NCBI GenBank assembly: GCA_002363735.1
Contig: DEWP01000017.1
Location: forward strand, 1-61,392
Direction: 5' to 3'
Length of the DNA: 61,392 bases
From: Bacillales bacterium UBA3207
GTDB lineage: Bacteria > Bacillota_I > Bacilli_A > RFN20 > CAG-826
The notes below the pieces were generated by a model. It did not search any database. It was not told the origin of the DNA and was given only the letters and a program-made list of their open reading frames with translations. Below are positions 42,853 through 50,528 of the stretch, piece by piece. Both the position numbers and the translations under genes were made by a program. Numbering within the stretch: position 1 is the first letter of the stretch; each line of letters opens with the position of its first letter.

Positions 42853-42880
42853 ACTTCGCATAAGAGATATTATGTTAACC
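42853..42880 (+). other. Chromosomal dif site (XerCD recombination site)
   Basis: ACTTCGCATAA-GAGATA-TTATGTTAACC: 11-6-11 structure resembling the E. coli (GGTGCGCATAA/TTATGTTAAAT) and B. subtilis (ACTTCCTAGAA/TTATGTAAACT) arms; lies at the gene-strand switch. Confidence 0.82.
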
Positions 42881-44733: not shown

Positions 44734-45314
44734 ATATTATGACTTTTATTGAAATTTGTGAACAAAATAACATCCAATCCAAAGCATTTTCCAAAGGAAG
44801 TGTTCTTTTTCACGAAGGAGAAGAATGTTCTTTTATTGGTTTAGTCAAAACTGGATTTATTCGAATTCAATCATATTCATCTAAAGGAACTGAGATTGTT
44901 TATAACGAAATTAAACCCAATGATTTTTATGGAGTTCATCTTCTTTTTGGAAATGATAAACATTTAAAAGGCGATGTTTATGCAGTTGAAGATTCTCAAA
45001 TCTTCTTCATCACAAAAGATCAATTTCAACATTTAATGCAAACATCAGAAGAATTCTTCAAAGAATTCATGCTTTTAGAATCTAGTTTTGTTAAATCGCT
45101 TAACCACCATATTAAACTTCTTTCTTTGCAAAGTGCGGAAGAAAGATTTCTGTTTTATTTAAAAAATAATGACGGCAAAGTTACTTATAAAAGCATCACT
45201 GCATTATCCCAAAATGTTCACCTCGAAAGAGAAACTCTTTCTCGACTGATTTCTTCGTTAGAAAAAAGGCATCAGATTAGACGCCTTTCTCATCAAATTA
45301 TTTTACTTAATTAG
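44724..45314 (+). CDS. Crp/Fnr-family transcriptional regulator
   Basis: LFHEGE..SFIGLVKTG cNMP-binding fold; HTH ERETLSR. Start is TTG 44724 or ATG 44739. Confidence 0.88.
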   Translation: MNHDIMTFIEICEQNNIQSKAFSKGSVLFHEGEECSFIGLVKTGFIRIQSYSSKGTEIVYNEIKPNDFYGVHLLFGNDKHLKGDVYAVEDSQIFFITKDQFQHLMQTSEEFFKEFMLLESSFVKSLNHHIKLLSLQSAEERFLFYLKNNDGKVTYKSITALSQNVHLERETLSRLISSLEKRHQIRRLSHQIILLN

Positions 45315-46507
45315 TCTTCAAGAAGTTCTTTGATTGGTCTACCAATCATTGTATCAGCTTTCTTAAGACCGAAGTTTTGAAGAATTGTTTCACCAATATC
45401 GGCAAAGCATTCACGTTCATCAAGGTATTTACCATGCTTGAATGATTTACTGAAGCAAATTAGTGGGACTTTTTCTCTAGTGTGATCTGTTCCAGTATGA
45501 GTTGGATCATTTCCGTGGTCAGCAGTCACCATAATTAGATCATCTTCTTTAGAAGCTTCCATTAATTCACCAAGTTGAACGTCAAATTCTTCAAGGGATT
45601 TTCCGTATCCAAGAGGATTACGACGATGTCCGTATTCTGAATCAAATTCAACTAAGTTAACGTAACACAAACCTTCAAAATCATGGTTCTTACATTCATC
45701 AATGGTTTTTTCCATTCCATCTTTGTTAGAAACAGTTTTTTGGGTTTTAACAACACCAACACCATTAAAGATATCACCAATCTTACCAATGCAAGAAACC
45801 ATATAACCATTCTTTTTAAGAATGTCCATAGCAGTAGTTCCGCTTGGAGAGACCGCCAAGTCATGACGATTTGGTGTACGTTTGAAGTTTGATGCATCAG
45901 TTCCGATATATGGACGAGCGATAACGCGTCCAACATAATATTCAGGACGTAAGCAGATTTCACGAGCGATTTCACAGCAACGATAGAGTTCTTGGACTCC
46001 AGTCACTTCTTCGTGGGCTGCGATTTGTAAAACGGAGTCAGCAGATGTATAGACAATTAAGCTATTTTCTTTCATTTGCTGTTCGCCTAATTCTTTTAGA
46101 ATTTCGGTTCCACTTGCAGCATAGTTACCAATGATTTTATGTCCAGTTTTTTCAGCAAGTTCATCAATTAAAGCTTGTGGGAATCCTGTTTCGGTAAATG
46201 TGATGAAAGGTTTTGTTGTATAAATACCCATCATTTCCCAGTGACCAGTCATCGTGTCTTTACCATTACTGGCTTCTCTGAGTCTCATGCTATAAGCATG
46301 TGGGTGACTAACTTTTGAAGTTCCTTTAACATCAGCGAGATCGCCAATCCCCATGGAATTCATGTTTGGAACATTTAAACCACCACATTTTTCTGCAGTA
46401 TGAACCCAGGTATTAGTTCCTTTATCGCCAAATTTTTCAGCATCTGGCATTTCGCCAATACCAGCTGAATCAGTTACAATGACAAATATTCTTTTGAATT
46501 TTTTCAT
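45311..46507 (-). CDS. deoB: Phosphopentomutase
   Basis: VTDSAGIGE.PDA, GKDTMTGHWEM, GRVIARP, NLVEFD..YGHRRN, TADHGNDP. Confidence 0.97.
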   Translation of the reverse strand: MKKFKRIFVIVTDSAGIGEMPDAEKFGDKGTNTWVHTAEKCGGLNVPNMNSMGIGDLADVKGTSKVSHPHAYSMRLREASNGKDTMTGHWEMMGIYTTKPFITFTETGFPQALIDELAEKTGHKIIGNYAASGTEILKELGEQQMKENSLIVYTSADSVLQIAAHEEVTGVQELYRCCEIAREICLRPEYYVGRVIARPYIGTDASNFKRTPNRHDLAVSPSGTTAMDILKKNGYMVSCIGKIGDIFNGVGVVKTQKTVSNKDGMEKTIDECKNHDFEGLCYVNLVEFDSEYGHRRNPLGYGKSLEEFDVQLGELMEASKEDDLIMVTADHGNDPTHTGTDHTREKVPLICFSKSFKHGKYLDERECFADIGETILQNFGLKKADTMIGRPIKELLED

Positions 46508-46539
46508 CTTAATACTCCTCAAACGTGAATTATTTTAAA

Positions 46540-47418
46540 CTATTTTCTTTTGCTATACAAATCATACGCTTCAAGAATTCTACGAGTCGAGATATTTAAA
46601 TATATCTGTGTTGTGGCAATGTTACTATGACCAAGCATTTCTTGAACGGTACGGATGTCAGCATTACCCTCTAGTAAATGTGTCGCAAAGCAATGTCTTA
46701 ATGTGTGAGGTGAAATTTCTTCTCTTATTCCAACCATCTCAGCATATTTTTTTACCTGTAAAAAGAAATATTGTCTAGACAATGGTTTTCCGTATCGATT
46801 TAGAAAAACATATTCTGATCGAGAACCAGGATTTTTCTTTCGACCATGTTCAATGTAGTTAACTAAATATTCTTTAGCAAATTCTCCAAATGGGACTTTT
46901 CTTTGCTTATTACCTTTACCGATTACAGTAATCATATTACGCTCAAAAGAGATATTTTTCATTTTTAATGAAAGAAGTTCACTAACTCTTAATCCAGAAG
47001 CGTACATTATTTCTAACATTGCCCGGTCTCTTTGTCCTTCATCTTTTGTTAAATCAGGAGCATCTAAGAGTCTTTCAACTTGTTCAATAGAAAGAACAGA
47101 TGGCAAATGTTTTAATGCTTTTGGAGCTTCGACATCCTTCATCGGGACATGAACATAATCTTCTTTTTCTAGGAAAAGATAGAAGCTTTTTAAAGAAGAT
47201 AATCGACGGGCAATTGTGGCTGTTGACATCTCCTTTTTACTTTGGATTTTAATAAAATCACCAATATCAAGAGGTTGAATTTCTTCGGTATCTTTATAAT
47301 TGAATTCTTTAAAGAATTCGTTAATGTCATAAGCATAAGAAAGAATCGTGTCATTAGACAAACCTTTCTCGACTCTTAAGTGTTGAAAAAAGAGTTCCTT
47401 AGCGCGATCAATGTCCAT
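46540..47418 (-). CDS. xerD: Tyrosine recombinase XerD (RipX)
   Basis: EKGLS, RDRAMLE.MYASGLRVSEL, GKGNKQR, LSRQYFF, HTLRH, LGHS..TTQIY; upstream of deoB as in ripX-drm. Confidence 0.88.
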   Translation of the reverse strand: MDIDRAKELFFQHLRVEKGLSNDTILSYAYDINEFFKEFNYKDTEEIQPLDIGDFIKIQSKKEMSTATIARRLSSLKSFYLFLEKEDYVHVPMKDVEAPKALKHLPSVLSIEQVERLLDAPDLTKDEGQRDRAMLEIMYASGLRVSELLSLKMKNISFERNMITVIGKGNKQRKVPFGEFAKEYLVNYIEHGRKKNPGSRSEYVFLNRYGKPLSRQYFFLQVKKYAEMVGIREEISPHTLRHCFATHLLEGNADIRTVQEMLGHSNIATTQIYLNISTRRILEAYDLYSKRK

Positions 47419-48601
47419 GATGTTTCTCCTTTAAGACATCTGAGGCTCTCATAAATGTGTCTTTTTTCATTCTTCGATTTAATTCACGAATCAAATCTTT
47501 TGTCGCGTTTCTTTCTTCATTGTCGTAGTTATCAAAAATTGATAATTGTTCAACATAGTCATCAGCATAAATTAGATTTTGAAGTGTCACTCCACAAAGA
47601 CGAATTTCTTGTCCGTTAAGATTTTTTTCTAAAAGAATCTGAGCTTCATTAAAAATGGTTTCAAAATCATTCGTTGGTTTAGATAATTTTGTTGAACGAG
47701 TGATATTTTTAAACTCATTTGTCTTCAAGACAATTTGGACATTGAATCCGATTTTATTCTTCGCTTTTGCTTCTTCCGATACTTCTTTAGAAAGTTCTCT
47801 TAAGTAATCTTTGATTTCGTCTAAATCAGATGAATCACGGATAAATGTTGTTGAGTGACCAATCGACTTTGGATCCCATGGTTCAACATCAACTTCGTCA
47901 CTTCCATAACCATTAATCCAGTCTTTGATAACATAATAAAACTTCCCAAATTCTTGTTTGATTATAGGATCATCTGAATTAATTAGCTTTGCTAAATCAC
48001 CAATCGTTTTAATGCCAATTGCTTCTAATCGAGGAGCAGTTTTCTTTCCAATTCCATAAAATGATGAGATTGGTAAAGGATCAAGGATCTTCCGAACATC
48101 TTTCCTTCGAATAATGGTGATGCCCATTGGTTTTTTCATATCGCTAGCCATTTTGGCTAAAAACTTTGTTGGAGCAACTCCAATAGAGCATTTTAATCCG
48201 ACAGTTTTTAATAAATTTTGTTGAAAATCTTCTAAATATTTCACCACATCTTTCACTTTCGAAAGTTGGCTTGTCATATCGACGTAACATTCATCAATTG
48301 ACGCTTTTTCGATGATTGGTGAATATTTTTTTACAAAGTTAAAGAATTCTTTTGATTTTTTAGAATATAAATCATAATGACCATGAATCACGATGGCGTT
48401 AGGGCAAAGTTCAAGCGCTTTAAAAGTTGGTTGTCCACTATGGACACCATATTTTCTTGCTTCATAAGAACAAGTTGAAACAATTCCACCACGACCAGAA
48501 TGACCAATGATGACTGGTTTACCAATCAATAGTGGATTGACGAGTTCTTCGCAACGAACAAAGAATGTATTTAAATCGATATGTAAAATGATTTTACTCA
48601 C
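47408..48601 (-). CDS. dinB: Y-family DNA polymerase IV
   Basis: HIDLNTFF, CSYEAR..GV.SG, SIDECY, KFLAKMASD..KP.G. Confidence 0.96.
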   Translation of the reverse strand: MSKIILHIDLNTFFVRCEELVNPLLIGKPVIIGHSGRGGIVSTCSYEARKYGVHSGQPTFKALELCPNAIVIHGHYDLYSKKSKEFFNFVKKYSPIIEKASIDECYVDMTSQLSKVKDVVKYLEDFQQNLLKTVGLKCSIGVAPTKFLAKMASDMKKPMGITIIRRKDVRKILDPLPISSFYGIGKKTAPRLEAIGIKTIGDLAKLINSDDPIIKQEFGKFYYVIKDWINGYGSDEVDVEPWDPKSIGHSTTFIRDSSDLDEIKDYLRELSKEVSEEAKAKNKIGFNVQIVLKTNEFKNITRSTKLSKPTNDFETIFNEAQILLEKNLNGQEIRLCGVTLQNLIYADDYVEQLSIFDNYDNEERNATKDLIRELNRRMKKDTFMRASDVLKEKHHGH

Positions 48602-48607
48602 GCTTCT

Positions 48608-48649
48608 ATTTTATAGAGCATAAAAAAATCATTCAACATTATGTTAACC
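48608..48649 (-). promoter_or_regulatory. dinB-xerD promoter with an adjacent XerD-arm sequence
   Basis: Minus strand TTGAAT (48631-48636)-17-TAAAAT (48608-48613)-6-GTG; TTATGTTAACC at 48639-48649 is identical to the dif right arm. Confidence 0.65.
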
Positions 48650-48665
48650 ATAACCTGAATGATCT

Positions 48666-50528
48666 CTATTCTAAATCTGCAATAATTTGTTCTGGAAGTA
48701 AGCCAAATGATTCAAGTTGTTCTTTGATACTGGCTTGTTTTACAAAAACGTTTGGTACACAATGCGCCGAAATAAGGCCTTTAAATTTTAAAGTCGATAA
48801 TTTAAGCGTCACAAGGGAAACAAGGCCTCCTTGGGTGCTATACGCATCGTAAATAACAATTTTATCGTAATTAAGGAGTGAACGAAGAGCATCTTCATCC
48901 ACTGGGTTAATAAATAAAGCGTTATAAAGTGTGCAATCAATGTTTTCTTTTTCAATAAGTGCTTCAAGTTCTCTTAAAAGAGGTCCAACAGCAATGACAG
49001 CAACCTTTTTGGCTTTTGATTCTTTAATTAAATACCATTTTCCAAAGGAATAATTTGATTTGATACTTTTTTGTTCACAAATATCTCGTGGATAACGAAT
49101 TACAAATACTCCATGATTATTAAATGATTCCTCATAGAGATATTCAGCTTCATCGCGGTTTGATGGCATTGAAATAACAACATTTGGGATTGATGCTAAG
49201 TAAGCGGAATCATAGATTCCTTGATGAGTTTCTCCATCAAAACCAACAAGTCCAGCTCGATCAACTAAGATTGTCGCGTTTGATTTTGTACGTGCTAAAT
49301 CATGTGAAATTTCATCATAAGCACGTTGCATAAATGTCGAATATATCGAAACAATTGGGTGTAAACCACTATGAGAGAGTCCGCCTGAAAGAGTTGCGGC
49401 ATGTTCTTCAGCAATACCGACATCAAGGCCTCTTTTTGGGAATCTTTTTAAAACTTTATCCATTTCTGCACCAACTAAAGTTGCTGGTGAGATTAAAAAT
49501 GCATTTTCATGTTTCTCCATCTCTATAAGAGATAAGTCAGCAAAGAATTTTGACCAAGTCTCTTTCGTGGTTGGCTTAACTGGAGCACCACTTTCAACTT
49601 TAAATGGAGCAACTCCATGCCACGAACCTGAATTATCATTTTCGGCTGGTTCATAGCCTTTACCTTTGGTAGTACAAACGTGAACAACAACCGATTTCTC
49701 AGTATTTTGAACACGTTTGAATGCTTTTTCTAGTTTCTTAATATCATGTCCGTCAACTGGTCCGATATAGGCAAAGCCTAAATCAGTAAAAATATTTGGC
49801 GCGGTAAGATGTCTTTTAAGCCAGTTTTTAATACGAAGTGTAAAATTATAAATTTTCTTACCAATTTTTCCATGTGCAATAGCACGACGATAACCGTATT
49901 TAATTCTGTTATAACCCGCACCAGTTGAAATACGACCAAAAATCTTAGATAAAGCACCAACAGGCTTGGAAATTGACATACCATTATCATTTAAAATGAT
50001 AACTACTTTATGATTACCACTAGCAATGTTGTTTAATCCTTCAAATGCTAATCCAGACGGGATTGAACCATCACCAATTAAAGCAATAACTTGATAATCT
50101 TCACCTTTTAAATCTCGGGCAATGGCAAAGCCATCTGCCACAGAAATTGAAGTTGAGGAGTGTCCTGCATCGAAGCAATCATAAACCGATTCATCAATTT
50201 TTTGGAATCCTGAAATCCCGTTTGTTTGTCGTAAGTTATCGAGTGGTCTACCTGTTAAAATTTTATGTGTATAGCATTGATGTCCAACATCAAAAATCAA
50301 CTTATCCTTTGATAAATCAAAGAAGTGTTCAATTGCAATCGTTAGTTCCACCACCCCTAAGTTACTAGAAAGGTGTCCACCGTTTTTAGCAGTACAACGA
50401 ATAATTTCTTTTCGAATGTCGTCAGCTAAAATATCAAGTTGCTTAAAGGAAAGATCTTTTAAAAAACTAGGATCTTTAATCTCGTGCAAATTAATATGTT
50501 CAACTTTGTTGACTTTCTTCTTGGACAT
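48666..50528 (-). CDS. dxs: 1-deoxy-D-xylulose-5-phosphate synthase
   Basis: GGHLSSNLG, DVGHQCY.HK, GHSSTSIS, GDG..N ThDP motif, DVGIAEEHA, DGETHQG. Confidence 0.97.
   Translation of the reverse strand: MSKKKVNKVEHINLHEIKDPSFLKDLSFKQLDILADDIRKEIIRCTAKNGGHLSSNLGVVELTIAIEHFFDLSKDKLIFDVGHQCYTHKILTGRPLDNLRQTNGISGFQKIDESVYDCFDAGHSSTSISVADGFAIARDLKGEDYQVIALIGDGSIPSGLAFEGLNNIASGNHKVVIILNDNGMSISKPVGALSKIFGRISTGAGYNRIKYGYRRAIAHGKIGKKIYNFTLRIKNWLKRHLTAPNIFTDLGFAYIGPVDGHDIKKLEKAFKRVQNTEKSVVVHVCTTKGKGYEPAENDNSGSWHGVAPFKVESGAPVKPTTKETWSKFFADLSLIEMEKHENAFLISPATLVGAEMDKVLKRFPKRGLDVGIAEEHAATLSGGLSHSGLHPIVSIYSTFMQRAYDEISHDLARTKSNATILVDRAGLVGFDGETHQGIYDSAYLASIPNVVISMPSNRDEAEYLYEESFNNHGVFVIRYPRDICEQKSIKSNYSFGKWYLIKESKAKKVAVIAVGPLLRELEALIEKENIDCTLYNALFINPVDEDALRSLLNYDKIVIYDAYSTQGGLVSLVTLKLSTLKFKGLISAHCVPNVFVKQASIKEQLESFGLLPEQIIADLE

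Follow-up and report, generated by a model that had tools for sequence, protein, structure and literature searches.

A lone XerD arm of dif at the promoter of the dinB-xerD-deoB operon, a candidate operator for XerD autoregulation in uncultured Bacilli

To our knowledge, Xer recombinases are regarded as constitutive housekeeping enzymes, and their sole established second role is SMC unloading at XerD-specific sites (XDS). Among other site-specific recombinases, Tn3/gamma-delta resolvase binds res and represses tnpA and tnpR. In S. aureus and B. subtilis, XDS lie in the region of the terminus, and at the terminus of the latter species XDS-bound XerD unloads Smc-ScpAB (Karaboja et al. 2021, Mol Cell 81:756, as cited in PMC12322038, PMC11894783, and PMC10945525). 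In the difSL-xerS system of streptococci and lactococci, the binding site lies immediately upstream of the Xer gene (Le Bourgeois et al. 2007, PMC1914069); autoregulation of xerS through binding at this site was raised by the same authors as speculation only. E. coli FliZ, which has a XerD-like core-binding domain, represses at promoter elements in competition with RNA polymerase (PMC3367168). A review of Xer systems from 2017 contains no mention of autoregulation.

The locus described here is a lone copy of the XerD arm of dif at the promoter of a dinB-xerD-deoB operon, found in a 61,392-nucleotide stretch of DNA (the window) from Bacillales bacterium UBA3207. The organisms studied are uncultured and known as metagenome-assembled genomes (MAGs), and the arm-bearing relatives, represented by loci from public genomes, are uncultured rumen and gut Bacilli near Erysipelotrichaceae and Coprobacillaceae. 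Like XDS, the promoter arm is a XerD site without a working XerC partner, lies near the terminus, and would have a use other than recombination. However, XDS are several and unload Smc-ScpAB, whereas here there is usually one site, in genomes without Smc or ScpB, and it is fixed to the promoter of the xerD operon. As in difSL-xerS, a Xer recombinase gene has its own binding site upstream, but difSL is a full active site in a single-recombinase system, whereas the present site is a separate dead half-site, with the true dif downstream of the operon. The likeness to Tn3/gamma-delta resolvase is that of a site-specific recombinase repressing its own gene through recombination-site DNA over the promoter; the difference is that between a serine recombinase of a transposon with a functional res and a chromosomal Xer tyrosine recombinase with a dedicated half-site. 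FliZ is without recombinase activity and targets sigma-S −10 regions, whereas an intact recombinase is the regulator proposed here. Control by XerD of its own production, which we regard as the most likely function of the arm, would be a role not previously described for this protein.

The chromosomal dif (42853–42880, plus strand) is composed of the XerC arm ACTTCGCATAA, the central region GAGATA, and the XerD arm TTATGTTAACC (42870–42880). It is located directly after rsfS at a convergent gene point, and the cumulative GC skew of the 132-kb contig reaches its maximum at 43 kb, where gene orientation switches as well. A dif of this type is present across the genus. The lone arm (48639–48649, plus strand; GGTTAACATAA on the dinB sense strand), which we propose as a XerD operator, lies on the same strand as dif at a distance of 5.77 kb. 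The first-pass annotation of this DNA had called it an 11 of 11 copy of the dif XerD arm with 13-bp identity, and both statements are accurate: the match to dif is exact and extends by one flanking base on each side to the 13-mer ATTATGTTAACCA (48638–48650), present at both sites. As a candidate dif, the promoter arm has the 11-bp XerD arm of the lineage consensus; the bases at 6-nt spacing from it are unrelated to ACTTCGCATAA, and it is located 5.8 kb off the GC-skew and strand switch.

Across the order, dif is usually located directly downstream of the dinB-xerD-deoB operon (L051/G030, L052/G020, and L053/G024), and only in the present genus do a crp-like regulator and an ABC transporter lie between deoB and dif. 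This xerD-dif module recalls xerS-difSL and xerH-difH.

The operon is encoded on the minus strand. Its first gene, dinB (47408–48601), encodes DNA polymerase IV (NF002492, 373 bits, along with matches to other Pol IV models) and starts with GTG. It overlaps by 11 nt with xerD (46540–47418), whose product scores 323.6 bits against the XerD model TIGR02225 as compared with 293.7 bits for XerC, and whose translation has the catalytic R, K, H-x-x-R, H, and Y motifs intact. The last gene is deoB (45311–46522), which encodes phosphopentomutase (NF003766, 534.6 bits). For a second recombinase, encoded on contig C2, the XerC score exceeds the XerD score, and both recombinases fall just under the NCBIfam equivalog cut-offs. 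Judged by these scores, the operon recombinase is the XerD-like member of the two. No arm was found in the region upstream of xerC. The dinB-xerD pair is kept across the order, and so is the place of dinB as the first gene of the same operon, which upholds the genetic side of the link to Pol IV drawn in the first-pass annotation; no evidence bearing on mutagenesis came to light. Upstream of dinB lies dxs (48666–50528, minus strand; identity supported by NCBIfam), whose stop codon is 16 nt before the arm. No terminator was found between this stop codon and the arm, and read-through from dxs could therefore bypass the dinB promoter.

As first annotated, dxs and dinB are separated by 64 bp (48602–48665), and on the dinB sense strand this gap runs GGTTAACATAA-TG-TTGAAT-N17-TAAAAT-agaagc-GTG. 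A promoter scan identified the −35 hexamer TTGAAT (48631–48636, minus strand), which starts 2 nt downstream of the arm, in agreement with the earlier placement, and the −10 hexamer TAAAAT (48608–48613, minus strand), separated from the −35 by a 17-nt spacer. This core promoter is near consensus. The TTGA of the −35 is retained in most of the genus, and the −10 is part of a conserved block, TCTATAAAAT, at 48608–48617. The end of TAAAAT is 6 nt from the dinB start codon, and the same distance separates the −10 from the start codon in two of the arrangements described below (layouts A and B), which anchors a promoter call made by scan. No Shine-Dalgarno sequence was found at the dinB start in this genome. 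With so short a distance from the −10 to the start codon, and no Shine-Dalgarno sequence, the dinB-xerD-deoB mRNA is probably leaderless, with the predicted transcription start coinciding with the start codon. Relative to this putative start, the arm is at about −48 to −38. Both here and in G018, dinB begins with GTG instead of ATG, an uncommon start codon for a leaderless message.

Several other readings of the gap had been put forward at the outset. The arm had been paired with ATAGAGCATAA (48613–48623, plus strand) as the XerC half of a split dif. This sequence indeed matches the XerC arm at 7 of 11 positions and lies 15 nt from the XerD arm, but its GCATAA is not conserved, being kept only in G000, G002, G005, and G006; its first five bases fall within the conserved TCTATAAAAT; and it shares bases with the −10 region and with the promoter spacer. 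The conserved element does not include it, and the split dif was rejected. With the XerC half unconserved and overlapping the −10, nothing points to XerC taking part. Two palindromes offered as alternative operators, AACATTATGTT and TTATG-N5-CATAA, are limited to the four closest species and were likewise rejected. A LexA (SOS) box was rejected as well: the motif CGAAC-N4-GTTCG does not occur in 48602–48665, consistent with the first-pass annotation, and LexA (PF01726) has no match over the cut-off in any genome of the genus. The arm is therefore not an SOS box, and dinB in this genus lies outside any SOS regulon. The only above-cut-off LexA-like match was in G020, a genome that lacks the promoter arm.

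In the 799,715-base assembly, the 13-mer ATTATGTTAACCA is found nowhere but at dif and the promoter, once at each, and the 11-mer TTATGTTAACC has three copies. The third copy of the 11-mer (C9:41974–41984) is located within a 294-amino acid coding frame, has unrelated flanks, and is most likely due to chance; base composition predicts about one extra 11-mer per 800-kb genome. Within the window, four matches with at most one mismatch were found against 1.5 expected, and 9 of 100 shuffles reached four, so that there is no over-representation. Copies of ATTATGTTAAC with one mismatch elsewhere in this genome lie mostly in coding or in ribosome-site or start-codon contexts, not in promoters. A single genome, with an extra copy to be expected and a window without over-representation, cannot settle whether the arm arose by chance; the case against chance is made by conservation across loci. 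An AT-rich 11-mer occurring by chance would fit the copy numbers, with about one extra copy predicted and three seen, but would leave unexplained an exact core in 25 of 38 related loci (0.06 expected) and a block invariant in 16 genomes. The conservation of the arm at related loci refutes this reading, to which we give practically no credence.

The conservation is evident in an alignment of 16 same-genus genomes, whose XerD proteins are 57–88% identical. In TGGTTAACATAAT, 12 of the 13 columns are identical in all 16 genomes and the remaining column in 15. The dxs-dinB spacer is otherwise scrambled, with only TGGTTAACATAAT, the adjacent TTGA, and the −10 block kept; TGGTTAACATAAT lies 2 nt upstream of a TTGAAT-N17-TAAAAT promoter. 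On the strand of dif, the consensus of the genus reads ATATTATGTTAACCAAA; it agrees with dif along 17 nt, and the flanks are conserved at dif too. The element is under strong purifying selection at the dinB promoter across a deep clade. In most genus genomes that have both sites on one contig, the 11-mer is present as two same-strand copies 5.7–5.9 kb apart; the distance from dif to the promoter arm is 7.8 kb in G017. Few or no further copies exist in these genomes, and their frequency is about that of a reversed control word; there is thus no dispersed family of sites.

G012 and G017 have the XerD arm ACTATATTATGTTAACCAAT at the expected position of dif (L042, G012:C88:4028; L036, G017:C10:11414), with no recognizable XerC arm, and a true dif was not found in these two genomes. 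They have a further lone arm inside the 3' end of dxs (L005/L007, −184 from the dinB start).

Beyond the genus, we examined 38 non-redundant dinB-xerD loci (367 kb). The exact core TTATGT[AT]AAC is present within −70 to −10 of the dinB start in 25 of these, as compared with 0.06 expected from the background rate in the same loci. Together with its presence in 16 of 16 genus genomes, this bears out the conservation upstream of dinB/xerD orthologs that the first-pass annotation had proposed looking for; the genome-wide count of the 11-mer that it had also proposed is given above. Four layouts can be distinguished. In layout A, that of the genus, the arm is at −47 to −38 from the start codon. In layout B (L060–62, L068, and L077/88), it is at approximately −36 to −24, over the −35 and the spacer. 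The arm is inverted in layout C (L070–72), where in L070 and L072 its TTAACA constitutes the −35, 17 nt before TATAAT; L071 has TTAACT, with less clear spacing. In layout D (G030), the arm abuts TTGTAT-N17-TATTAT, and the message has a leader and a Shine-Dalgarno sequence. In a tree of DinB and XerD, all four layouts fall within one clade of 33 rows. Within this tree the arm has been lost in L065, L069, L073, and G024, and the outgroup families are without it. The same operon but no arm was found in L065, L069, L073, G020, G027, and G024, and the arm is therefore dispensable.

In one lineage, the sequence of the promoter arm changes together with that of dif. In G030, the dif arm is TTATGTAAAGT and the promoter arm TTATGTAAACT, both with A rather than the genus T at position 7; that is, the promoter arm reads TTATGTAAACT where dif likewise reads TTATGTAAA. 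The co-variation with dif suggested in the first-pass annotation is thus seen at position 7 of G030; within the genus the comparison is uninformative because the arm never varies there. We regard this co-variation as supportive but thin, involving one lineage, one position, and a single event. The original idea of a recombination-dead XerD site on the promoter of its own operon consequently survives in its main part, the arm being invariant in the genus, kept in several other families despite rearrangement, and changed along with dif in one lineage, and fails in the part that concerned XerC.

The same observations bear on whether the element might be the operator of another transcription factor, or an UP or −35-type promoter element, with its likeness to dif coincidental. 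The arm contains the palindrome GTTAAC and is AT-rich and promoter-proximal, and words like the XerD arm can look like promoter elements, TTAACA resembling a −35 and TGTAAAAT an extended −10. However, the identity to dif spans 13–17 nt, with flanks that are conserved at dif as well, and the conserved block as a whole is without dyad symmetry. The place of the arm relative to the −35 and −10 varies among clades, but its sequence does not, and in G030 it follows the dif variant. There are also no further copies at promoters such as a regulon would have. We consider this explanation unlikely, and prefer to see in the arm a site for XerD.

Three extra exact copies of TTATGTTAAC occur in L077/L088, at approximately −406, +1737, and +5060/+5077 from the dinB start. 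These are additional to the promoter arm and dif, fall inside about 6 kb, and are conserved in both genomes; lone XerD arms are thus clustered locally although Smc is absent. In another class, four Clostridia MAGs (L126, L127, L131, and L132) have XerD-arm-like words (TTATGTAAAA, TTATGTAAAT, and TTATGTTAAC) 48–66 nt upstream of xerD. In L127 and L132 these words coincide with an extended −10 (TTGTCA-N17-TAAAAT). The Clostridia words may represent the same theme in another class, or they may be promoter mimicry.

The promoter arm has the same orientation as dif at a distance of 5.77 kb, and xerD is among the genes that the two sites flank. We therefore also considered that the arm is a decayed second dif, as the first-pass annotation had suggested, or else a pseudo-dif left by an IMEX, a mobile element that depends on Xer, and that the two sites bracket a once-mobile 5.8-kb block. 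The block consists of housekeeping genes syntenic across the order, rather than variable mobile cargo between direct dif-like repeats. No conserved XerC arm exists at any spacing. The arm tracks the promoter and not dif: it lies anywhere from about 3.6 to 7.8 kb away from dif but at a nearly constant distance from the promoter, and in L070–72 it points the opposite way to dif. Nor would a scar free of selection remain invariant over such divergence. An origin of this kind is accordingly highly improbable.

A different possibility is that the arm is a lone XerD docking site of the XDS type that serves chromosome architecture, its position at a promoter being incidental. Lone XerD-specific sites near the terminus are already known (Karaboja et al. 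2021, as cited in PMC12322038, PMC11894783, and PMC10945525). The promoter arm fits this description: it is a XerD arm that has no functional XerC partner and belongs to the terminus region, with dif and the skew switch 5.8 kb away, and extra lone arms occur nearby in G012/G017 and L077/L088. On the other hand, the full-length Smc model (TIGR02168) did not reach its cut-off in any of 26 genomes (19 relatives plus 7 others that bear the arm), nor did ScpB (PF04079) in any of the 19 relatives, whereas each of the two models scored above it in 9 of 14 control genomes. Because the lineage is without Smc and ScpB, a role in SMC unloading is unlikely. Nor are there several sites over the terminus, as in XDS: most genus genomes have dif and the promoter arm only, with extra arms in a few lineages, and most species have one lone site per genome. 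Moreover, despite three rearrangements and an inversion, the arm has remained no more than about 30 bp from the core promoter, a proximity for which a site serving chromosome architecture would have no need. Taken together, these observations make an XDS-type site with an incidental promoter position improbable.

The SMC hinge (PF06470) gave weak matches only, to ATPases of 1093–1140 amino acids in 3 of the 19 genomes. The hinge ATPases of G004 (L138, G004:C98) and G020 (L139, G020:C5) have no relative in the present genome. These may be Wadjet/JetC-like defence proteins rather than condensin. Condensin loss across an order of small-genome Bacilli, if this is the case, would be notable in itself.

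On balance, we think it probable that the arm is a recombination-dead XerD operator through which the leaderless dinB-xerD-deoB transcript is subject to negative autoregulation. As would be expected of an autoregulatory operator, the site abuts or overlaps the core promoter of the regulator's own operon, of which xerD is the second gene, and its conservation exceeds the neutral background and follows the promoter. The XerD homologue RipX favours the conserved right half-site (PMC5357621). By analogy with E. coli and B. subtilis, we infer that XerD, of the two recombinases, is the one that reads the arm, and its binding to the lone arm would resemble that to the right arm of dif. With no XerC arm at the promoter, recombination could not take place there. 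The side of the arm that corresponds to the central region of dif faces the −35, and bound XerD would block or disturb the contacts of sigma region 4 and the alpha-CTD at the −35. Excess free XerD would in this way shut off its own operon, a negative feedback by promoter occlusion. Lacking the cooperativity of XerC, the half-site should be filled after dif, and would thus sense surplus XerD, reporting what is left over once dif is occupied. As dinB and deoB are on the same transcript as xerD, they would be co-repressed, which would place Pol IV and phosphopentomutase under common regulation with the recombinase in a lineage without LexA/SOS control.

The sign of the regulation is the least certain step in this scheme. 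Repression is favored over activation because the arm sits on the −35 in sister lineages and the core promoter, being near consensus, should not depend on an activator. The genus arm lies next to the −35 and not on it, and for this reason it could also act in activation or have a purely architectural role.

A broader proposal, which we put forward more tentatively and hold to be somewhat short of probable, is that XerD, the resolvase of chromosome dimers, doubles as a transcription factor in a deep clade of uncultured rumen and gut Bacilli from which LexA and Smc-ScpAB have been lost, with the pool of free XerD setting the levels of both XerD and the translesion polymerase Pol IV in place of SOS control of dinB. 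If true, this would be the first Xer protein to act as a transcriptional regulator, and the promoter arm would be a recombination site cut down to a plain operator. The rearranged layouts of the sister clades provide natural variants of this operator arrangement. Such a mechanism, if correct, would explain how dinB is controlled in Bacillota without LexA, and would tie the signal for dinB to the status of chromosome resolution.
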